A stretch of 64,000 nt of DNA from Candidatus Omnitrophota bacterium (lineage in GTDB: Bacteria; Omnitrophota; Gorgyraeia; Zapsychrales; JANLHA01), in assembly GCA_023247795.1 (NCBI GenBank), contig JAHFFT010000006.1, forward strand, positions 4,664 to 68,663, in the 5' to 3' direction. The translations under genes were made by a program, and so were the position numbers. Positions within the stretch are counted from its first letter, which is position 1. Every line of letters starts with the position of its first letter. A model generated the notes under the pieces. That model had not been told where the DNA came from and made no database searches. It saw nothing but the letters and a program-made list of their open reading frames with translations. This document shows positions 1,154 to 51,174 of the stretch, in pieces.

Positions 1154-1195
1154 ACATATCGTTTGATGGGGACTGTCCCGTCACCGTCCTCAAAA

Positions 1196-4419: not shown

Positions 4420-5289
4420 TTACGCCGGTGTTATCAGTTTAAGAAGCCGCTCAAGATCATCCGCGGAATAATACTCAATGACAATCTTTCCTCTTTTCTT
4501 TTGCGGCTGAATGCGGACCCTTGTTCCCAAAGCTTTTTGCAAATCTTCTTCGATGAACGTTAGATCATGATGTCGTTGTTGAATTTTTAATTCTCTTCTT
4601 TTGACCGCCTCGGGCTTTTTCGTGCGCACAAAATTTTCGACTTCGCGAACCGACATTCCCTTTTCAAGGATATAAAGAAAGGCCTCTCGCTGCTGCGCGA
4701 CATCAAGAATTCCTAAAAGTGCCCGGGCATGCCCCATGGAAAGCTCTCCTCGATAAACGCTTTTTTGGATTTCCTCTGGCAATTTCAATAATCTTATCGC
4801 ATTGGTGATCGTTGAGCCGTCCTTGCCTACCGATTTGGCAATGGCTTCATGGGTCATACCAAATTCCTGAATCAGCCGCTTAAAGGCCAAGGCTTCCTCA
4901 ATGGCATTGAGATCCTCCCTCTGAATGTTCTCAATCAACGCCAAGACAAAGGCCTTTTCATTTGAAACATTCTTGATAATCGCTGGAATTTTTTTCATTG
5001 CCGCTGCTTTTGCTGCCAGCAACCTTCGCTCGCCGGCCACAACCTCAAATCCGCCTTCGATTTCACGCAGCAAAAGCGGTTGTAAAATTCCATTTTCCTT
5101 GATGGATAAAATCAATTCATTGAGTTTGGTTTCATTATAATCGGTACGCGGCTGCAACGAATTTCTACGAATCTTATCCGTGTCAATGAGATGAACCTCT
5201 CCGTCCAAAATTTGTTTATCGCGAGTCCCCAATTCAGCCTTATCCGGGATTAGCGCTGACAATCCTTTTCCTAAAGCTCTTGATTCCAT
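4420..5289 (-). CDS. parB: chromosome partitioning protein ParB
   Basis: ParB box GERRLLAAK and HTH ...IAKSVGKDGSTITNAIRLLKLP. Adjacent to parA near the origin. Confidence 0.9.
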   Translation of the reverse strand: MESRALGKGLSALIPDKAELGTRDKQILDGEVHLIDTDKIRRNSLQPRTDYNETKLNELILSIKENGILQPLLLREIEGGFEVVAGERRLLAAKAAAMKKIPAIIKNVSNEKAFVLALIENIQREDLNAIEEALAFKRLIQEFGMTHEAIAKSVGKDGSTITNAIRLLKLPEEIQKSVYRGELSMGHARALLGILDVAQQREAFLYILEKGMSVREVENFVRTKKPEAVKRRELKIQQRHHDLTFIEEDLQKALGTRVRIQPQKKRGKIVIEYYSADDLERLLKLITPA

Positions 5290-5303
5290 GACTTCTCCTG
5301 CGT

Positions 5304-6167
5304 TTATGCGTTATCGGTTTGTGATTTCATTTGTTCGGTTGGTTCGATTCCTTTTTCATTGGAAATATTTTTTATCCTGTTTAATTCCAATTGTTTACGA
5401 TCTTTCACCTGTTCTCCCAGCAATTCTTTTGCAAGTTCTTCGTACCTTCTTGCTCCGCTGCAAATCGGATCATATAACATAATTGGCTTTCCAAAGCTTG
5501 GCGCCTCACTCAATTTGATATTACGAGGAATAATGGTCTTATAAACTTTTTCCTTGAAATACCCCTTGATTTCATTGATGACCTCAGTTGTCAAATTGGT
5601 ACGAAAATCCGCCATGGTTAGTAAAACTCCTTCAATTTCTAAATCCGTATTCAAACCATCTTTGATCAAATTGATCGTATTCAATAATTGCGAAACACCC
5701 TCAAGCGCATAAAACTCACATTGGATTGGAATAATGATCGACTGGCTTGCAACCAAAGCGTTAAGAGTTAACAAACCCAGCGATGGCGGAGAATCAATGA
5801 AGATATAATCATATTGATCTTTTACCGATGAGAGGGCGCGCTTGAGCCGCGTTTCTCGTGAAAGGGCGCCGACCAATTCAATTTCAGCGCCGGTCAAATT
5901 GATATTGCAGGGAATGATATCGAGATTTTGATAAAAATTTTTTATTATTGCTTCCTCGACGGGAGATTTCTGAAGCAAGACGTCATAAATCGAAATTTTA
6001 ATCTCACCTTTGTTAACACCGGTGCCGCTCGTTGTGTTTCCTTGCGGATCCGTATCTATAACCAAAACCTTTTTATTTTGCTGAGCGACCGCAAATGACA
6101 GATTTACCGCTGTTGTTGTTTTGCCGGTCCCTCCTTTTTGATTACAAATTGAAATGATTCGCGCCAT
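5304..6167 (-). CDS. parA: chromosome partitioning ATPase ParA/Soj
   Basis: Deviant Walker A KGGTGKTTTAVNL and ParA/MinD fold. Confidence 0.9.
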   Translation of the reverse strand: MARIISICNQKGGTGKTTTAVNLSFAVAQQNKKVLVIDTDPQGNTTSGTGVNKGEIKISIYDVLLQKSPVEEAIIKNFYQNLDIIPCNINLTGAEIELVGALSRETRLKRALSSVKDQYDYIFIDSPPSLGLLTLNALVASQSIIIPIQCEFYALEGVSQLLNTINLIKDGLNTDLEIEGVLLTMADFRTNLTTEVINEIKGYFKEKVYKTIIPRNIKLSEAPSFGKPIMLYDPICSGARRYEELAKELLGEQVKDRKQLELNRIKNISNEKGIEPTEQMKSQTDNA

Positions 6168-6256
6168 AATGATTTAATTTTTTATCGCTATTCACGTGAA
6201 ACGCAAATTCTCAAAAGCCATTCTCTCCCATATAATTGCAAAAATCAACAACAATT

Positions 6257-6451
6257 TCAATTTTTAACAACAACTCTGATCTTGGCCGGCTTTGCTCCCT
6301 CCATCCCAAACAAACCTTTTTTCTCTTCGCAGACGACTTTAACTAAAATGTCTTCTCTAGATACCTTTAGAACCTCCAATGCTTTCTTAATGGCGTCTTC
6401 GACATTGAGGCCTTCGATTTCGATTGACTTCTTCTTTCTGTGCCTATCCAT
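6257..6451 (-). CDS. Jag/KhpB N-terminal-domain-only protein (64 aa)
   Basis: IEIEGLNVEDAIKKALEVLKV resembles the Jag_N domain. Overlaps the yidC 3' end by 8 nt, the usual yidC-jag position, but has no KH/R3H domains. Confidence 0.5.
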   Translation of the reverse strand: MDRHRKKKSIEIEGLNVEDAIKKALEVLKVSREDILVKVVCEEKKGLFGMEGAKPAKIRVVVKN

Positions 6452-8093
6452 TTATAACCACCTGCGGCTGTTTGGACATTCTCCACTGTGTCAACGTCGA
6501 CAGCAAATAAAACACCGTAAAGTACAAACACAATCCACTTGCGAATTTGTAAAAAATAAATCCAATAAATACTGGAAATATCGTCATCATCATTTTTTGT
6601 TGGGCGATTTGCGCCGGATCAGTAACGACCATGTTTCTTGCCGACATTTTTTGCTGAAAAAACATAATAAGCATCATTAGCAAAGGTAACAAATTAAGTT
6701 CATTCCCAATAATTGGAAGCATGTAGGGAAGTATGAATAATTGATCCGGCATCGATAAATCCTTAATCCAAAGAAATCCCGCCCCTTTAAAGGAAACTGA
6801 CCTCCATAGCACCTGATATAAACCAATAAAAATCGGCATTTGCAAAATCAGCGGTAAACAGCCTCCTATAGGGTTGATGCGATGCTCTTTGTACAAAGCC
6901 ATCATTTCTTGATTTAATTTTTGCGGATTTGTCTTGTATTTTTCCTTCAATTGAGTCAATTTTGGCTGCAAAGCCTGCATTTTTTTCATTGAAAGCATAC
7001 TCTTTTTTGTTAAAGGATACATGAGAAGATGCAACATTACGCTTACTGAAATGATACAAAACCCCCAACTAGGAACAATTTTATACAGGAAATGCATAAA
7101 TTTATATATAATTTTTGAAACGGCATCAAAAATTCCTATTCCAGAAAACGACATAATAGGTTCAAAGCCTTGATTATACTCTTTCAGTCGTTCGAGGATT
7201 TGCGGACCACAATAAATCGAATAATTTAAAGTGATTTTCCCTCCCGCAGGTATCTCAACTTTTTCACGTGCAAAAGCTAAATCCAATATGTTATCAGCAA
7301 CGTAATGAATTCTGTAATGACTTACTGGCTCCTTTGGGTTAACAATTAAACAGTAATAACGATCCCGAAATCCAAGCCAGTTGACTTCCCCCGAATCCTG
7401 CTTCTCATCCTTTTTAGAAAATCGAAAGGCGTTTCCTTTTCGTATCACACCACTGGCTAGACTAACTGAATATTCAAAAAGGGTGCGCTCTCGAGAATTG
7501 TCCATTCTGGAAATGTCCAATCTGTTATTGTCCATTCTGGTAATGTCCAATCTGGAAATGTCCAATCTGAATCCTTTTATGTGTAAATCAATCAGTTTGG
7601 ACATTTTTGATATGTTTTCGATTTCAATCTCAGATTGGACATTATAATCATCCGTCAAATGATACTTCTTAGATATTTTAATATCATTTTCTTGATACGA
7701 GTAGCTGATTTCTCTATTATCAACTGCTAGGTGATCTAAATGATATTCAACCGAATCATGACCATCCATTGTCAAAATTTCGGTTACAGGCAAACTTGCT
7801 TTATACTCACGCAAATAAATGGATTTGATCGAACCACCCAAATTAGTGAAATCGACGTCATACTTAGCGGTCTGTTCATGCTGGATTGTCTCGGGAGTTT
7901 TTGTAGATTTATCTGCCGCTGCCAACGCCGAATCGCTTTGTGTGACAGCCGTCGTTGATTTGTCTAAACTTTGGGAATTTTTCGGAAGAAAATCAGTAGT
8001 ATTTACGCGGGGTGTCGGCCTTGGCATTAATGTACTCCAAAGCAGTAAGACAAGGAAGGATAGTGTAAAAGCTAATATCAGCCGTTTTTCCAT
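6444..8093 (-). CDS. yidC: membrane protein insertase YidC (carries an in-frame repeat insertion)
   Basis: 549 aa. An N-terminal TM segment and periplasmic domain are followed by a C-terminal core with conserved insertase TM helices (...PLTKKSMLSMKKMQALQPKL...YKEHRINPIGGCLPLILQMPIFIGLYQVL...). Confidence 0.9.
   Translation of the reverse strand: MEKRLILAFTLSFLVLLLWSTLMPRPTPRVNTTDFLPKNSQSLDKSTTAVTQSDSALAAADKSTKTPETIQHEQTAKYDVDFTNLGGSIKSIYLREYKASLPVTEILTMDGHDSVEYHLDHLAVDNREISYSYQENDIKISKKYHLTDDYNVQSEIEIENISKMSKLIDLHIKGFRLDISRLDITRMDNNRLDISRMDNSRERTLFEYSVSLASGVIRKGNAFRFSKKDEKQDSGEVNWLGFRDRYYCLIVNPKEPVSHYRIHYVADNILDLAFAREKVEIPAGGKITLNYSIYCGPQILERLKEYNQGFEPIMSFSGIGIFDAVSKIIYKFMHFLYKIVPSWGFCIISVSVMLHLLMYPLTKKSMLSMKKMQALQPKLTQLKEKYKTNPQKLNQEMMALYKEHRINPIGGCLPLILQMPIFIGLYQVLWRSVSFKGAGFLWIKDLSMPDQLFILPYMLPIIGNELNLLPLLMMLIMFFQQKMSARNMVVTDPAQIAQQKMMMTIFPVFIGFIFYKFASGLCLYFTVFYLLSTLTQWRMSKQPQVVING
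7496..7645. repeat. in-frame minisatellite inside yidC: tandem units AGA(T/A)TGGACA(T/A)T, reverse complement AATGTCCA(A/T)TCTG
   Basis: Four tandem plus two dispersed copies. They encode RLDISRLDITRMDNNRLDISRMDN in YidC. The unit matches, in 12-13 of 13 positions, the CAGAATGGACATT motif that accompanies REP elements elsewhere in the window. Confidence 0.7.
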
Positions 8094-8217
8094 TATTTCA
8101 TTTGCTTTGTAGAAGTAGAAGCGACAGGCAAGTCGCTCTTAATACATGAAGTGTTTCTGCAGTCAGATCTTACAATATATCTCCTGGCCCGAGTGACATA
8201 TTCGTTGTCAGCAACCA

Positions 8218-8355
8218 CTATACAGTTAAGCGGTGCCGGCCTTTTGCTCGACGTCTCTTTAAGACTTCCCGGCCACCAGAAGCTGACATTCTTCGTCGAA
8301 AACCGTGTAATCTTTTGCCTTTTAAGTTGGATTTTGATTTGAGATGCTTCTTCAT
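8218..8355 (-). CDS. rpmH: 50S ribosomal protein L34
   Basis: Manual translation: [45 protein letters not shown] (45 aa). Not in the ORF track because it is under 60 aa. Confidence 0.85.
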
Positions 8356-8887
8356 AGTTCGCAAATTATAACATAGTCGATAACTCAGTCAAGCTATTTC
8401 CTAATGCATTGCTTAGCAGAGACATAAAAGTCTTTCAAAAAAAAGGAGTTACCAACATTTCGACTCCATATTCTAATTATGGAAAGGCGCCCAACAGAAA
8501 ATTGATTTGCATATTTTAGGTAGTTTGTTATAATGAAAATCCTTTACGAAAAAAAACACATTTCCATAAGATTTGGTTAAATTTTTTCTAATAGCGTTCG
8601 TGTGCATTTCAAAAGTCGTAAAATTCGCATAATTAACAGCTGTGTATAACCTGTGGAATCACACTTCAAAAGCACATAAAACGTTTATTTACAACTGTTT
8701 ACATTTAATTAAGACTGTTGATAACTTTTTTAAAAACACCGTTTTCTTGGAAATCCTATTATCACACGTCCTGCGCCGTAACAATGAACGACGTTAAAAT
8801 ATCCATTGCATTAACGACCACAAACATTTATCATTGACATTACTCAATTTGCTTTCTCAACTTTTATTGCGCGTTAATATCTAAATC
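8356..8887. promoter_or_regulatory. probable oriC / dnaA control region (rpmH|dnaA divergent intergenic)
   Basis: AT-rich 530-bp spacer. One-mismatch DnaA-box variants TGTGTATAA (8641) and TGTTGATAA (8716), plus weaker ones. AT tracts that could be the unwinding element. A sigma70-like TTGCAT-16nt-TATAAT sits at 8504-8535. Gene orientation in the window flips here. Confidence 0.5.
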
Positions 8888-10249
8888 ATGGACGACCTGC
8901 TTTTGAATATCTGGAAAAAAGCCCAACCGCTCATCAAGGCGAAAGTCGGTGAGTCCTCGTTCGAAACCTGGCTTGCTTCCCTGAACGTCGCTCCTAAAGA
9001 TCCACAGACGCTGTTGATCGAAACCCCGGATGAGTTTTTCAAAAATTGGATCAACGATCACTACATTCAAATCATTGAAAATGAAATCAATAGCCTGAGT
9101 TCCGTAAAGATTGCCGTCGAACTCATTGTTAACAACTCCGTTGCGGCCGCGGCATTGGGTAAAAAGGGGGCGCAAGAACGTTTTGCGCGCATCGAAAAAA
9201 ACTTTCAACAGGTTCAGGAAGCTCCGCAAGATCAAAATCTCAATCCCCGATTTCTTTTTGATAATTTTGTGGTCGGACCGTCAAACCGATTTTGTTATGC
9301 CGCCAGCTTAGCCGTCGCGGAATCTCCGGCGAAGGCGTACAATCCGCTCTTCATTTATGGTCCGGTGGGTCTTGGGAAAACGCATTTGATGCAAGCGATT
9401 TCGCATCAAATCAAAGTCAACCATCCAAACATTCACTCTTGTTATATCTCTTCCGAACGTTTTACCAACGAACTGATCGAAGCTATTCGTCATCGTTCAA
9501 CAACTCAATTCCGACAGAAATATCGCAATATTGACGTCCTTTTAATTGACGATATCCAATTCATTGCCGGAAAAGAAGCGACTCAGGAAGAATTTTTTCA
9601 TACATTCAACACCCTTCACAATAATCGCAAACAAATCATCATTTCCTCGGATCGTCCGCCAAAAGAAATTGTTAATTTGGAAGAGCGCTTGCGAAGCCGC
9701 TTTGCTTGGGGGTTGATCACCGACGTCCAGCCGCCGGATTTTGAGACCAGGGTAGCGATTCTACGAAAAAAAATTGAACGCGAACCCGTGAATGTTCCTG
9801 ATGATGTCATTGATTTTATTGCGGAACAAATCAAAACCAATATCCGTGAGTTGGAAGGGGCTCTGATTCGGGTGATCGCTTACTCTTTATTGGAAGAAAA
9901 ATTGATTTCCCTAGAAATGACGAAGGTGATATTAAAGGATATGGTAAAAAATACAGTAAAAATGATTAGTGTTGAAATGATTCAAAATAGGGTCGCTGAA
10001 TTTTTTAATATCTCCTTAGGTGATCTCAAAGCAAAACGCCGAAGTAAAAACATCATTTTACCTCGCCAGGTTGCCATGTACTTATCCCGGCACTTAACTG
10101 AGCTTTCTCTTCCGGAAATAGGAAATGTGTTTGGTGGTAAAGATCATACGACTGTATTACATTCCTGTAAAAAAATTGAGAAAGAAATAAAAAATAATCA
10201 AGAACTTAAAAACTCCGTCAATCAATTGATCATCGAATTGAAACGATAA
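8888..10249 (+). CDS. dnaA: chromosomal replication initiator DnaA
   Basis: Walker A GPVGLGKTHLMQAI, AAA+ sensor motifs and a C-terminal DNA-binding domain ...VAMYLSRHLTELSLPEIGNVFGGKDHTTVLH. Confidence 0.95.
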   Translation: MDDLLLNIWKKAQPLIKAKVGESSFETWLASLNVAPKDPQTLLIETPDEFFKNWINDHYIQIIENEINSLSSVKIAVELIVNNSVAAAALGKKGAQERFARIEKNFQQVQEAPQDQNLNPRFLFDNFVVGPSNRFCYAASLAVAESPAKAYNPLFIYGPVGLGKTHLMQAISHQIKVNHPNIHSCYISSERFTNELIEAIRHRSTTQFRQKYRNIDVLLIDDIQFIAGKEATQEEFFHTFNTLHNNRKQIIISSDRPPKEIVNLEERLRSRFAWGLITDVQPPDFETRVAILRKKIEREPVNVPDDVIDFIAEQIKTNIRELEGALIRVIAYSLLEEKLISLEMTKVILKDMVKNTVKMISVEMIQNRVAEFFNISLGDLKAKRRSKNIILPRQVAMYLSRHLTELSLPEIGNVFGGKDHTTVLHSCKKIEKEIKNNQELKNSVNQLIIELKR

Positions 10250-23775: not shown

Positions 23776-23938
23776 CAAGTCCCAAGCGACATGTCTCAAG
23801 TTGAGAATGACATGTGACTTGTAACTTGAGACGTGAGACTAAATTAACAGGGACAGCCCCCACTGGATAGTCCCAAGCGACATGTCCCAAGTTGAGAATG
23901 AGATGCGACTTGTAACTTGAGACTTGAGACAAGATTAA
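23772..23938. repeat. two tandem repeat-family-C units separated by a GGGACAGCCCCCACTGGATA REP-like segment
   Basis: AGTCCCAAGCGACATGTCTCAAGTTGAGAATGACATGTGACTTGTAACTTGAGACGTGAGACT appears twice, with about 90% identity between the two. Confidence 0.6.
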
Positions 23939-25717: not shown

Positions 25718-25835
25718 GGGGACAGTCCCTAAGGGGACAGCCCCCACTGGATATACAAGTCCCAAGCTGCAAGTTTCAAGTTGAAAATGACCTGTAACTT
25801 GTAACTTGAGACATGAGACTTGTGACATGAGACAT
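25718..25835. repeat. REP doublet (GGGGACAGTCCCT AA GGGGACAGCCCCC ACTGGATA) fused to a repeat-family-C unit
   Basis: Direct sequence match to the REPs at 35864 and 49986 and to the repeat-C copies. Confidence 0.6.
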
Positions 25836-35863: not shown

Positions 35864-35924
35864 AGGGGACAGTCCCCTTATACTAGGGGACAGTCCCCTA
35901 GGCATTAAATGTCCATTCTGAATT
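35864..35924. repeat. two REPs (AGGGGACAGTCCCCT) followed by AAATGTCCATTCTGAATT
   Basis: Inverted orientation of the CAGAATGGACATT-N-AGGGGACAGTCCCCT composite found at 49966, 50662 and 51121. Lies 10 bp upstream of the ORF starting at 35936. Confidence 0.7.
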
Positions 35925-35935
35925 AGGGATTTTTT

Positions 35936-37720
35936 ATGGGAGTTATTCATAAACTCAAACAAGAAGTTGTACAGTTCATTGTCCAAAAGAAGAAGGATCT
36001 CCCGCAGGTCAGCTGTCGAAAGATGGCGGATTTTGTCCATACCGCATTTGAATTAAATCTCTCTAAGTCGGCGATTAACAACATTTTACAGAGATCGACG
36101 TTAAGTAGTCCGGTGGGCAGGCGGCCACAAGACCCCGGCCGAAAAGAATCGGTTGTTCAACAGGGTGTTAAAGCCAAATCTTTTAAAATTCCCGATCAGA
36201 AGAAAATATTAGGGGGACAGTCCCCAAAAAGGGACTGTCCCCCTCCTGGTTTTCCTCCTGTTCCCCCGCTTCAACCGTCTAAGTCTCCTCTTCCTCCGGT
36301 CGCACAGAGTCAGCGTAAATTCAGTGTGAAAAGAGCCTCTTCATTGCAGCCAAAAGAGGGACTGTCCCCTAAAGGGGACAGTCCCCCTAAGCTACCAAAG
36401 ACGCTTTATGATCATATGGGCAGCATTTTTCTAAAGGCGGCAGAATGGGAGATTTCCGACGGGCCACTTTTGGGAAAAATACTAAAGGATCATCTGCCGG
36501 CCGGATTTTCTCAGCAAGAGCTGGAGCAGGCCGGGGAAGTGCTTTTATTTTTGCAAGTATTTGGGATTAAAAGACTTGAAGATTTTATTCATTACACAAA
36601 AGACGGATTATGGGCGATTAACGGTCTAAAAACCAAAATCCCATTTTTCAAGATCAATGATTTAGCACGATTTTTGAATACCGTTTCGGGGGTAAGAGCA
36701 CAGCTGCAAATACACATTTCACAATTAGTTACAAAAGCAGCCTATATCAAGGTGGTCTTTAAAGCCGGTAATTGCTTATGGGTAGATGCCCTGGGCGCCG
36801 GGCTGAGTTCTGCGAAGAGAAAAGGGCCCAATTTTTCGTCCATCAACCAGATCACCACAACAATGATCAATCAATGGTTAATGCCGCGTGAGCCGCTGAT
36901 TCTGGGTGCTGTTCAGGATGGCCAATCGCTTTATCATTTGGCGGCAGGCTTTGCTAATGACACGAATCGAAAATTACATAAGATCATGGCTTTTGGTTAT
37001 GACGATCAAGAGATCATTGCCTTTGATTCCTTCATTGACACAAAACGATCATTTCTCGTCGGACTATGGCCGTCGCAGGAGTTTTATCAGCAACTTTTTG
37101 GATCGCAAGATTTTGTTTATAAGAAAAATTTTGAAATGACCGATGGCCATAAGCAGGTTGCCTATGATGAAATGACCGTTAAAATCAAAGATCCGGTTGG
37201 GGAGTTACATCCCATTTCGTTAAGGGCGGTGGGGTTTGAAATGCCAGGGAACCAGCCGCAAATGGGCGTTATTTTAACCAATATGAGTGATAAGGAAATG
37301 ACAGCAGCGGGACTCATCAGTGCTTATGTTCAGCGCTGGCCCTGTTTTCAAGAATCGAAATCGCTACAAAATTTTCTGCAACCCAATGTCTCGGAAGAGT
37401 ATGTGTCTCAAGATGAAAATATTTCCAACGATTTATCCGAGGCCAATGATTTGCATATTGCACTTAACTATTTGAATCGCTACGGCCAAGAGGCCTTTTT
37501 TCCATCAGCATACGGCGATTTAGACCTATCATCAATGACATCAATATTTTACAACATAGCCGGATATTTACAGTGTACCAAAGAGCTGGTAAAAGTTGAA
37601 CTGATTATGCCAAGGGAAGATTATCCTTATCAAAATGATTTGGCTCTGGCGGTCAGGAAGGTCAATGAGCGCAATATCAGCGATTTTCAGGGAAGAAAAT
37701 TATTTTTGTCATGTTTATAA
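35936..37720 (+). CDS. 594-aa transposase-like protein (N-terminal HTH; C-terminal Y-x2-R-W...E...K like the IS4/IS1634 C1 motif) carrying two in-frame REP insertions
   Basis: REP doublets at 36212-36243 and 36358-36387 are translated as ...GGQSPKRDCPPPG... and ...KEGLSPKGDSPPK.... The YVQRWPCFQESK block resembles DDE-transposase C1. The family call is tentative. Confidence 0.35.
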   Translation: MGVIHKLKQEVVQFIVQKKKDLPQVSCRKMADFVHTAFELNLSKSAINNILQRSTLSSPVGRRPQDPGRKESVVQQGVKAKSFKIPDQKKILGGQSPKRDCPPPGFPPVPPLQPSKSPLPPVAQSQRKFSVKRASSLQPKEGLSPKGDSPPKLPKTLYDHMGSIFLKAAEWEISDGPLLGKILKDHLPAGFSQQELEQAGEVLLFLQVFGIKRLEDFIHYTKDGLWAINGLKTKIPFFKINDLARFLNTVSGVRAQLQIHISQLVTKAAYIKVVFKAGNCLWVDALGAGLSSAKRKGPNFSSINQITTTMINQWLMPREPLILGAVQDGQSLYHLAAGFANDTNRKLHKIMAFGYDDQEIIAFDSFIDTKRSFLVGLWPSQEFYQQLFGSQDFVYKKNFEMTDGHKQVAYDEMTVKIKDPVGELHPISLRAVGFEMPGNQPQMGVILTNMSDKEMTAAGLISAYVQRWPCFQESKSLQNFLQPNVSEEYVSQDENISNDLSEANDLHIALNYLNRYGQEAFFPSAYGDLDLSSMTSIFYNIAGYLQCTKELVKVELIMPREDYPYQNDLALAVRKVNERNISDFQGRKLFLSCL

Positions 37721-38312
37721 TACGAATACTAATATATAACAATTCTGTAACTTGACATTTAAAATAAGAGCATGTTATACTTTAAAAGTGAAGAGGGGGG
37801 AGATCTGGCTGCTTATCAGGAGCAGGGAATGATTGTAAGTTTTTTTGAACAAATAAGATACATATTCCAGAATGGCCTCGCATTTCTTTTTTTAAGATAT
37901 CATCCTTTTGAACATCATCTCCATCCATCGCGGGCTGGAGATTTTTTATTGACTGCAAAGTCTTTCGAGAAAAGGCGTGTTGCAAGCGATCTGACCTTGC
38001 TTTTAGCAGGGATGATTCTGTGGGCCCATCCAGTGGTCTGCAGATGCCGGCTGCAAAATTTGGCCGGTAATAGAGTCCGAGAGTGAATTCTGCTTGAAGC
38101 GCGGGGATGCTTTAAGGCGGACAAGGGTTATTTGAAACGTTAGGACAGAAACATTTGAACAAAGGCGACAACAGCAAATTTTTAAAAAAATCAGGCCTTT
38201 GATCAGAGAAGTTTGGTCTTAACCGCAAATGACTTAAGAAAAGGGTTCACACCTGAAGGGATTTGTAAAGTTGTTTTAGCAACGTTAGTAGTCATTTTGA
38301 AGGAGGATAGCA

Positions 38313-49965: not shown

Positions 49966-50000
49966 CAGAATGGACATTAATTTAAAGGGGACAGTCCCCT
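49966..50000. repeat. composite CAGAATGGACATT-N7-AGGGGACAGTCCCCT (REP)
   Basis: Exact motifs, 5 bp from the 3' end of the RAYT gene. Confidence 0.7.
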
Positions 50001-50005
50001 GTTAA

Positions 50006-50545
50006 TTATTCCTCTACTTCGTAAGAATCAAGAATTTGGAACCAGGAATAGGTGTCTTGATCTGTATAATCTTCAATGGGTTTGAGTGCTGAATTGATGC
50101 GTTTGTGTCCAGTGTGATAAGCCGCGCTCGACCACTCCCATTCCCAGGCTTTTTTTACTAGTTTTGCCTGTACCGGGTTACATTCTACATAACGGATAGC
50201 CGCCAAAAGATGATCTTCTTCCAGTAAGCACGAATAAAATCTTTCCTGCCAAAAATGTCCATTTAGATTACGTTTGCGATGCTGATCTTGAGCATAGCGC
50301 ATATGACAAACGCTAAACGCCTTTGCCAGGGAATCCTCTTTGTGGGGGATGACTATAAAGTGGACATGATTGCTCATAAGGCAATAGGCGAGGATGGACA
50401 TGGTGTATTTTTCGCTATATTCACAAATCCAAGAAAGGTATTTTAAATGATCGGCGTCATCAAAAAAGACCGTTTGTTGATAATTCCCCCTCTGGACGAC
50501 GTGATATGGGTAGTCTGGTATTACAATGCGTGCTGTTCGTGGCAT
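50006..50545 (-). CDS. REP-associated tyrosine transposase (RAYT; IS200/Y1 HUH family)
   Basis: HUH motif MSNHVHFIV; ...GHFWQERFYS...IRYVECNPVQAKLV...WEWSS... matches the RAYT C-terminal catalytic-Tyr region (compare E. coli YafM WQPRFW...NP...W.WSS). Flanked by REPs. Confidence 0.8.
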   Translation of the reverse strand: MPRTARIVIPDYPYHVVQRGNYQQTVFFDDADHLKYLSWICEYSEKYTMSILAYCLMSNHVHFIVIPHKEDSLAKAFSVCHMRYAQDQHRKRNLNGHFWQERFYSCLLEEDHLLAAIRYVECNPVQAKLVKKAWEWEWSSAAYHTGHKRINSALKPIEDYTDQDTYSWFQILDSYEVEE

Positions 50546-50661
50546 AATCTACAAATTGATGTGGGGGGTACTAAAAAAGTTGGGTGCGGGAATATGAGGA
50601 CAATAGTTTATACAACAATTTTGATAAAATGTCAAGTCTTTAGGGGCAATCACCAAATTTT

Positions 50662-50717
50662 CAGAATGGACATTTAAAAATAGGGGACTGTCCCTATTAT
50701 TAAAAATGTCCATTCTG
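50662..50717. repeat. 56-bp perfect palindromic composite: CAGAATGGACATT / AGGGGACTGTCCCT / AATGTCCATTCTG
   Basis: The arms are exact reverse complements around a central REP. Lies upstream of the RAYT gene. Confidence 0.75.
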
Positions 50718-51120
50718 AATGTCTACTGTATTGGAGTTATCTTACCTAATTTAGGCATATAAACTGTTGTGGATTAAGGTGTTAATGAGAAAATTATTTT
50801 TTTACACCCTTGTTCTTATCGATATTTATGTTATACTTACTTTGCAAGTGATTATAGAATTTTATTAGATTCATAACATGTTGTAGTAAAACAGTTTAAG
50901 ATATGATAAAAGCCACGGATATCTTAAATTTGAGTATTAAATTTAATTTTGGTAAAGTTTAAGGGGCTGCCGAAATCGAGGCAGTCTTTTTTTATTTCAT
51001 CGGCCGATGAAAATGACACTCAAACAACTAACCGCAACACCCCAAAGGGAACTTCAAAAAGAGTTCCCTCCATTCATCACTTGCACAGAGGGAGCCTCCT
51101 TAGCCCTAAAATCCATTTTT

Positions 51121-51156
51121 CAGAATGGACATTATATCAAAAGGGGACAGTCCCCT
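51121..51156. repeat. composite CAGAATGGACATT-N8-AGGGGACAGTCCCCT
   Basis: Exact motifs, 19 bp upstream of the giant ORF start codon. Confidence 0.7.
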
Positions 51157-51174
51157 AATTAACCGAGTATGACT

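Follow-up and report, generated by a model that had tools for sequence, protein, structure and literature searches.

A 64,000-nucleotide stretch of contig JAHFFT010000006.1 from a Candidatus Omnitrophota bacterium (the window) contains a gene of 594 codons, here called the host gene, that lies in a Tad pilus locus and carries two pairs of short palindromes in frame. The palindromes are of the repetitive extragenic palindromic (REP) type, and they flank a gene for a REP-associated tyrosine transposase (RAYT) elsewhere in the same window. Our analysis indicates that they were probably inserted as passengers of the REP/RAYT system into the disordered linker of a conserved Tad-locus protein. A first-pass annotation had placed two REP doublets in frame within a 594-residue open reading frame (ORF), with two further REPs and a 13-nt sequence (13-mer) upstream, and its coordinates and sequences proved exact. 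Its reading of the doublets as translated into a Pro/Gly/Ser-rich linker is likewise correct. The relevant features are as follows.

35936..37720, plus strand: host gene, 594 residues, with a helix-turn-helix (HTH) domain, a disordered linker and a C-terminal domain of weakly Tn5-like fold
35936..36109, plus strand: N-terminal three-helix HTH domain of transposase type (residues 1-58)
36110..36388, plus strand: hypervariable linker, predicted disordered, housing both REP doublets (residues 59-151)
36212..36243, plus strand: intragenic REP doublet 1, an inverted pair (GGGGGACAGTCCCCAAAAAGGGACTGTCCCCC), read as GGQSPKRDCPP (residues 93-103)
36358..36387, plus strand: intragenic REP doublet 2, an inverted pair (GGGACTGTCCCCTAAAGGGGACAGTCCCCC), read as EGLSPKGDSPP (residues 141-151)
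35865..35898, no strand assigned: upstream REP doublet, a direct pair in the promoter or leader region (palindromes 35865-35877 and 35886-35898; 8-nt spacer TTATACTA)
35908..35920, plus strand: 13-mer AATGTCCATTCTG, local copy of a phylum-wide site and candidate operator (12-nt core ATGTCCATTCTG at 35909-35920)

REP palindromes and the RAYT gene

The REP core in the window is GGGGAC(A/T)GTCCCC, a 13-nt palindrome with a single-base centre. With at most one mismatch allowed, the 12-mer GGGACAGTCCCC gives 22 strand-matches, equivalent to about 13 sites across the 64 kb, where shuffled sequences give 0.16; these copy counts for the REP (GGGGACWGTCCCC) cover the 64-kb window rather than the whole genome. 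Because the palindromes are repeated to this degree and flank a cognate RAYT gene, they are, as judged from sequence, the REPs of a REP/RAYT system (REPtron) resident in the genome, and finding that gene in the same window bears out their initial identification as REPs. Four of the 13 copies are intragenic. The RAYT gene, its composite repeats and the other extragenic copies are listed below.

50006..50545, minus strand: RAYT gene, a Y1/HUH transposase of IS200 type, 179 residues, with H60-V-H62 and Y119 in RYVECNP (read from the translation)
49966..49999, no strand assigned: composite repeat at the RAYT 3' flank (CAGAATGGACATT, 8 nt, GGGGACAGTCCCC; REP at 49987-49999)
50662..50717, no strand assigned: composite repeat at the RAYT 5' flank (13-mer, REP at 50683-50695, inverted 13-mer), a 56-nt perfect-armed inverted repeat
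51121..51155, no strand assigned: third composite repeat (13-mer, 9 nt, REP), just 5' of a giant ORF that starts at 51169
1168..1180, no strand assigned: extragenic REP copy between tRNA-Leu and tRNA-Cys
25718..25745, no strand assigned: extragenic REP copy (25718) and REP variant GGGACAGCCCCC (25734) between two ORFs
23850-23861: second copy of the variant GGGACAGCCCCC, between ORFs

The remaining REP copies around the RAYT gene (49987, 50683 and 51143) are extragenic. A two-copy repeat of about 30 nt (GGGACAGCCCCCACTGGATA...GTCCCAAGC) is present at 23850-23885 and 25734-25775, 3' of two ORFs, and one of its copies adjoins a REP.

The RAYT protein matches Pfam Y1_Tnp with E = 1.4e-14 and 54.7 bits, compared with a cut-off of 23 bits. 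The palindrome occurs on both sides of the gene, each time adjoining the 13-mer, and the 5'-flank composite folds (50655-50735; -31 kcal/mol, z = -6.8). The gene is located 14 kb from the host gene. An unrelated metagenome contig, L198 (64% GC), encodes a RAYT with 34% identity to that of the window, and doublets of the same palindrome flank its gene on both sides. In other Omnitrophota, longer hairpins that combine the outer stem GGGGAC...GTCCCC with lineage-specific interiors lie beside RAYT genes on their flanks; the 13-nt palindrome of the window looks like a minimal version of this hairpin family.

The 41-nt arms at 36209-36249 and 36350-36390 are 78% complementary, doublet 2 with its flanks being an inverted copy of doublet 1. 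Seen with their flanks, the two intragenic doublets amount to a unit of about 40 nt present once in each orientation, an arrangement that fits REPIN-like insertion both ways round. We envisage that REPIN-like inverted doublets of about 40 nt inserted twice, in opposite orientations, and that both would have landed in the linker-coding stretch between the HTH and C-terminal domains. An insertion with a length that is a multiple of three would add only flexible residues, because the core is stop-free in six frames and reads Gly-x-x-Pro, and would be tolerated as a passenger where the sequence is unconstrained. The insertions would then have been inherited vertically, eroding through in-frame indels and point changes. 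We infer that the RAYT performed the insertions and that these are functionally neutral.

Sharing, tolerance and rival origins of the intragenic palindromes

The host gene has a syntenic ortholog, L001 (GCA_023247815.1), with 88% amino acid and about 90% nucleotide identity. It matches the window in the positions of its 13-mer, its upstream doublet, doublet 1, which differs by three substitutions, and the first palindrome of doublet 2; of the second palindrome of that doublet, only GTCCCCC is left. Because the ortholog has the insertions at identical sites, they appear from this alignment to predate the split of the window species and the L001 species and are not very recent, contrary to one of the options offered in the first-pass annotation. 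L001 is 18 nt shorter at doublet 2, which in our reading of the alignment fits two 9-nt in-frame deletions with loss of KGD and KLP. Every linker indel between the two genes is a multiple of 3. At the nucleotide level the two genes are 94.1% identical across the linker once its palindromes are set aside, compared with 90.9% for the HTH domain and 89.7% for the C-terminal domain. Substitutions in the linker are spread evenly over codon positions (5/6/5), whereas 83 of 137 in the C-terminal domain fall at position 3. We read the linker as a segment in which the frame is held by selection and the peptide sequence is unconstrained. The high similarity of the linker DNA, compared with about 81% at C-terminal domain third positions yet without codon-position bias, points, on small numbers, to conservation at the nucleotide level.

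The palindrome stems are nearly unchanged between the window and L001, with two substitutions in the four fully aligned copies plus two centre flips. The A/T centre base is flipped in two palindromes (35892 and 36236); in the upstream doublet of L001, the centre A of the second copy is replaced by T. Centre flips accompanied by near-intact stems suggest hairpin-templated inversion of the centre.

Residues 59-151 have an AlphaFold predicted local distance difference test (pLDDT) score below 50. Across the host-gene family, the linker varies from about 10 to 400 residues and is unalignable between homologs. Our reading of the sequence is that the 13-nt core is stop-free in all six frames and always encodes G-x-x-P (GDSP, GTVP, GQSP, GDCP and GLSP), a property that plausibly explains tolerance inside genes. 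Co-option of the palindromes as linkers, also considered in the first-pass annotation, need not be invoked: every homolog has a hypervariable, disordered linker, and in a comparison of 70 family genes doublet 1 of the window (-30.9 kcal/mol) is the most stable local structure, with no comparable hairpin in the linkers of other lineages. Distant homologs are without REP sequence, but their linkers are unalignable, and the only close ortholog has the inserts. The linker of one distant homolog (P0021) includes the peptide KGDSPEKGEP; its DNA, AGGAGACTCTCCT, is a different palindrome present in a single copy, and we rejected it as a REP.

We scanned metagenomes with the pattern GGGACWGTCCCC, 1-12 nt, GGGACWGTCCC and found doublets in at least 120 contigs ranging in GC from 0.33 to 0.77. 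The host-gene family was present in none of the listed scan contigs (at least 120). Of the 27 doublets that could be assessed in 32 low-GC contigs, 13 lay inside long ORFs; for random positions the figure is 59%. Pfam domains span the insert in ten in-frame cases, the proteins including NifS, NifU, a CysA-like ATPase, glycosyltransferases, epimerases, MiaB, ValRS and aconitase. These data suggest that an intragenic location is ordinary for the GGGGAC(A/T)GTCCCC family, which is barely excluded from coding sequence. Along with published intragenic REPs (PMC3733652), they also weaken the premise, adopted in the first-pass annotation, that REPs are normally extragenic. The contigs with in-frame doublets are L097, L103, L117, L127, L141, L144, L150, L151, L162 and L199, an RHS protein being among the hosts, and typical encoded peptides are RDSPLRGQSL, GTVPIRGQSP and KGQSPSGTVP. 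Contigs of 70-74% GC also carry tandem arrays of up to about nine palindromes with a 17-18-nt period (L091 3690-3751 and L128 2304-2490).

In-frame intragenic REPs are already known, and the window case adds an example from an uncultured phylum. A 2013 study (PMC3733652) described REPs within ORFs, often as dimers, that encode 20-30 residues and were suggested to occupy linkers or loops. The GTAG/CGTC REPs of that study (Di Nocera et al. 2013) resemble those of the window in being short palindromes, often dimers, contained wholly inside ORFs and adding about 10-30 residues as proposed flexible linkers or loops, and GTAG REPs also flank RAYT genes. The window REPs differ in that they lack the unpaired GTAG or CGTC tag, being minimal 13-nt perfect palindromes with a single-base centre, and in that the RAYT flanks also bear the 13-mer. 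The REPIN/RAYT system (Bertels and Rainey 2011, PMC3116915) shares with the window system inverted REP doublets that form long hairpins, a REP-flanked RAYT and seemingly vertical inheritance; however, REPINs are described as extragenic, whereas 4 of 13 window copies are coding. Rickettsia palindromic elements (RPEs), the classic case of in-frame palindromic insertion (reviewed in PMC10969869), are likewise mobile palindromic repeats found in frame in functional genes, where the added peptide is compatible with the fold. RPEs are about 100-150 bp with a conserved peptide, whereas the window inserts are about 30-40 nt, and in the window system a cognate tyrosine transposase is identifiable. A literature search with the palindrome string returned unrelated primer matches only.

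Several observations weigh against insertion of passenger palindromes by the RAYT. The best NCBIfam model for the RAYT, REP_Tyr_transpos, scores 64.8 bits and falls under its equivalog cut-off of 80 bits, and action of this protein on a 13-nt palindrome is putative. The flanks of 334 metagenome and 11 window copies share no conserved sequence that would correspond to an unpaired GTAG or CGTC tag, and some of those in the window show just xTAG. The next closest homolog after L001 is about 30% identical, and no REP-free close ortholog was found with which to date or prove the insertions. Six of the 13 window palindromes lie within 520 bp at the host gene, a concentration above random REP scatter. 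Doublet 1 is terminator-like on both strands in our scan. Lastly, third-position divergence from L001 is low in the linker (5 of about 74 sites, versus 83 of 444 in the C-terminal domain) and, although the numbers are small, hints at some nucleotide-level constraint.

The last three observations are also what would be expected if the intragenic palindromes were functional cis-elements, acting either by hairpin attenuation of transcription or translation after the HTH part, to give an HTH-only product, or as extra binding sites that regulate the gene jointly with the promoter copies. The stable RNA hairpins predicted for doublet 1 (z = -5.3) and doublet 2 (-27.6 kcal/mol), the near-invariance of the stems between orthologs and a C-CCA-AAA heptamer that we read in the loop of doublet 1 point the same way. 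We nonetheless consider such a function improbable: the hairpin is confined to this lineage among the family genes, in L001 half of one doublet is already gone and the stem of another has mutated, doublets identical in type turn up in many unrelated genes and in phyla where the host-gene family is absent, and the U-tract after doublet 1 is poor. The clustering could instead mean that the REPs near the promoter spread locally by duplication or gene conversion, with no independent RAYT transposition into the host gene. The upstream copies match doublet 2 exactly over 14-16 nt including flanks (I3, I8), and the location of a REPtron directly upstream of the host gene in several other lineages implies a long-standing REP neighbourhood. 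This route too is unlikely, as the intragenic doublets are oppositely oriented and 100 nt apart, an arrangement that simple tandem duplication does not yield; moreover, it would alter only how the palindromes arrived, not the nature of the element or the reason for its tolerance. Passenger insertion by the REP/RAYT system remains the explanation we favor.

The host protein and its place in the Tad locus

The first-pass annotation allowed that the ORF might be fortuitous and without homologs, but it is a real gene. A word-indexed search returned 24 homologs and an exhaustive search 947 representatives at 50% clustering, and the gene is present in 111 species genomes, nearly all labelled Omnitrophota. 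The fused HTH-linker-C-domain architecture was seen in 23 of 23 aligned homologs and in the top 150 profile matches. Conserved sequences include MGVIHKLK...SKSSIN...LSSPVGRR in the N-terminal domain and DGMGxIFLKAAEWE at the beginning of the C-terminal domain. Both domains of the host protein are confidently modelled by AlphaFold. The full-length prediction has a pLDDT of 79.6 and the C-terminal domain alone 87.1, with a predicted template modelling score of 0.87; helices of the HTH domain span residues 9-21, 27-38 and 44-53 with pLDDT of about 90.

The order RcpC-secretin-CpaF-DUF192-[host gene]-pilin-like genes, with TadB and TadC later, is found in approximately 73 of 81 loci, and the position is kept even by a homolog of 24% identity (L082). 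The host gene is essentially single-copy per genome and belongs to the conserved gene set of the Tad pilus locus in Omnitrophota. The Tad complex of this phylum is already known (PMC10066038), and in the passages of that paper that were searched the host gene receives no mention.

RAYT genes recur in this setting. Of 81 loci, 11 have a RAYT homolog within 10 kb of the host-family gene. In six or seven of these the RAYT gene lies directly upstream of the family gene in divergent orientation (RAYT-upstream loci listed: L021, L028, L036, L037, L050, L058 and L063), and in three, namely the window, L070 and L076, it follows TadC. More than expected of a normally single-copy gene, RAYTs with GGGGAC...GTCCCC hairpins recur at these two fixed Tad-locus boundaries in distant lineages. 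REP hairpins and 13-mers recur jointly at both boundaries in several lineages, which may indicate a function or just a long-standing REP neighbourhood.

The description of the ORF in the first-pass annotation as transposase-like holds for the N-terminus, where Pfam HTH families of transposase type are matched by family members (HTH_32 in 10 of 23 and HTH_Tnp_Tc3_2 in 6 of 23; the HTH match of the window protein on its own is sub-threshold, E 0.046), and fails for the catalytic core, which has no conserved DDE triad. The segment YVQRWPCFQESK corresponds to residues 464-475. In Foldseek searches, the sole PDB fold matches of the C-terminal domain were Tn5 transposase chains (E 1e-3 to 7e-3, probability 0.82-0.94), with template modelling scores of just 0.18-0.24. 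By inspection, an LTN...Y..RW motif resembles the YREK region of IS4/Tn5. These similarities to Tn5/IS4-family DDE transposases, together with the N-terminal DNA-binding domain, contrast with a series of differences. Comparison of the family profile with Tn5 transposase by hhalign (with a Tn5 sequence verified against PDB chains) detected no similarity (probability 0.2), a profile search of PDB sequences with the family gave nothing relevant, and no Pfam DDE family was matched in the 23 members. D284, conserved in 21 of 23, is the sole conserved position of the presumed triad. There is no second conserved Asp and no conserved acidic residue after the fourth strand in the 23 members, and the position corresponding to Tn5 E326 is Leu or Phe, as mapped by motif and not by structural superposition.

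Terminal inverted repeats around the host gene were detected neither in the inverted-repeat analysis of the window nor downstream of the gene in 65 loci. The first-pass annotation had noted TAAATGTC at both ends; this is a single 8-mer, and its right-hand copy overlaps the -35 of the strong predicted promoter of the next gene. An inverted 13-mer at the right end was also rejected as a terminal repeat. The window has just a 9-nt remnant (CCAGAATGG, approximately 37865-37875) inside arm I2, and in 65 loci the inverted 13-mer is not enriched 3' of the host gene (0.10 per kb versus a background of 0.28 per kb). Because its synteny is fixed, the DDE triad and inverted repeats are lacking and profile searches are negative, the host protein is transposase-derived at most and not the transposase of a mobile element. 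The proposal of a mobile element colonised by another, in which REPs invaded a transposase gene with terminal inverted repeats, can draw on the HTH type, the Tn5 fold match and the LTN...Y..RW motif, but it is already contradicted by the constant place of a single-copy gene in the Tad locus and is highly improbable.

The upstream 13-mer

The core of the 13-mer upstream of the host gene ends 15 nt before the ATG (35936, from the ORF translation). Across the family, the motif nAATGTCCA(A)(T)CTG(G/A)A, with at most two mismatches, lies no more than 130 nt upstream of the gene in 57 of 79 loci, most often 20-21 nt before the ATG, where it overlaps the ribosome-binding site. A second copy often lies about 63 bp further upstream, abutting the -35. 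In some lineages the motif is a perfect palindrome, AATGTCCAGaCTGGACATT, with a palindromic variant, AATGTCCAGACTGGACATT. TGTCCA reaches 6.2 per kb upstream of the family gene versus 0.25 per kb in the background, an enrichment of about 25-fold. Most homologs have a clear TTGACA...TATAAT upstream; a sigma-70 scan upstream of the window host gene found no convincing promoter. The upstream 13-mer is a probable operator, and its simplest reading, from position and recurrence, would be an autoregulatory operator of the host HTH protein. The homolog L082, whose start overlaps DUF192, has no upstream operator; exact 13-mers (TGTCCATTCTGA) occur within its coding sequence at 5930 and 6563, that is, at +930 (read NNVHSE) and at the stop codon (read IIVHSDIL and stop).

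Besides adjoining the RAYT-flanking REPs, the window 13-mer occurs at 51121 and 51186, around the start of the giant ORF. This plus-strand ORF of more than 4,270 codons runs from 51169 to past 64000, directly after the Tad locus and RAYT. One 13-mer lies 48 nt upstream of its start and the other in its first ten codons (MTMDESRLDI).

Within yidC (6444-8093, minus strand) there are seven further copies of the 13-mer, five in tandem and two inverted, spanning 7498-7642. The five-copy tandem is in frame with 15-bp units (7498-7572) and encodes RLDIS RLDIT RMDNN RLDIS RMDNS. All six Omnitrophota yidC genes that we read (the window and L203-L207) have 2-7 TGTCCA/TGGACA hexamers in the same 230-nt stretch, where about 0.11 are expected. 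Hexamer orientation and peptide vary by lineage, with MSK or MSN versus SRLD at the same place. Because orientation and encoded peptide differ between yidC lineages, the cluster argues for conservation of the DNA motif rather than the peptide. The 13-mer stretch is approximately 1.3 kb from dnaA, and the cumulative GC skew minimum is nearby, at about 8-10 kb. In the surrounding replication-origin neighbourhood (4420-10249), the minus strand carries parB, parA, a jag-like gene, yidC and rpmH, and the plus strand carries dnaA.

We tentatively raise the possibility that the host protein is a phylum-wide, transposase-derived DNA-binding protein of the Tad locus that recognizes the 13-mer AATGTCCAAtCTG, and that the REP-13-mer composite could disperse its binding sites. 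If so, the settings of the 13-mer would be the gene's own promoter (20-21 and about 84 nt before the ATG), the adjacent giant ORF and the yidC cluster by dnaA/oriC, and the REP/RAYT system of the window lineage would have become fused with the site in the order 13-mer, 8-9 nt, REP.

As an instance of in-frame REPs, the window shows why such insertions persist: the core is open in six frames and encodes Gly-x-x-Pro, and the landing site is a disordered linker. The survey bears on how extragenic "extragenic" REPs are, which matters for metagenome gene calling and protein alignments. The 13-mer and the uncharacterized Tad-locus protein are, however, a more promising lead than the REPs within the gene. 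With a Tad-locus gene identified that is conserved in Omnitrophota and unannotated, and with a candidate operator for it, regulation of Tad, a presumed host-attachment machine, becomes open to experiment.

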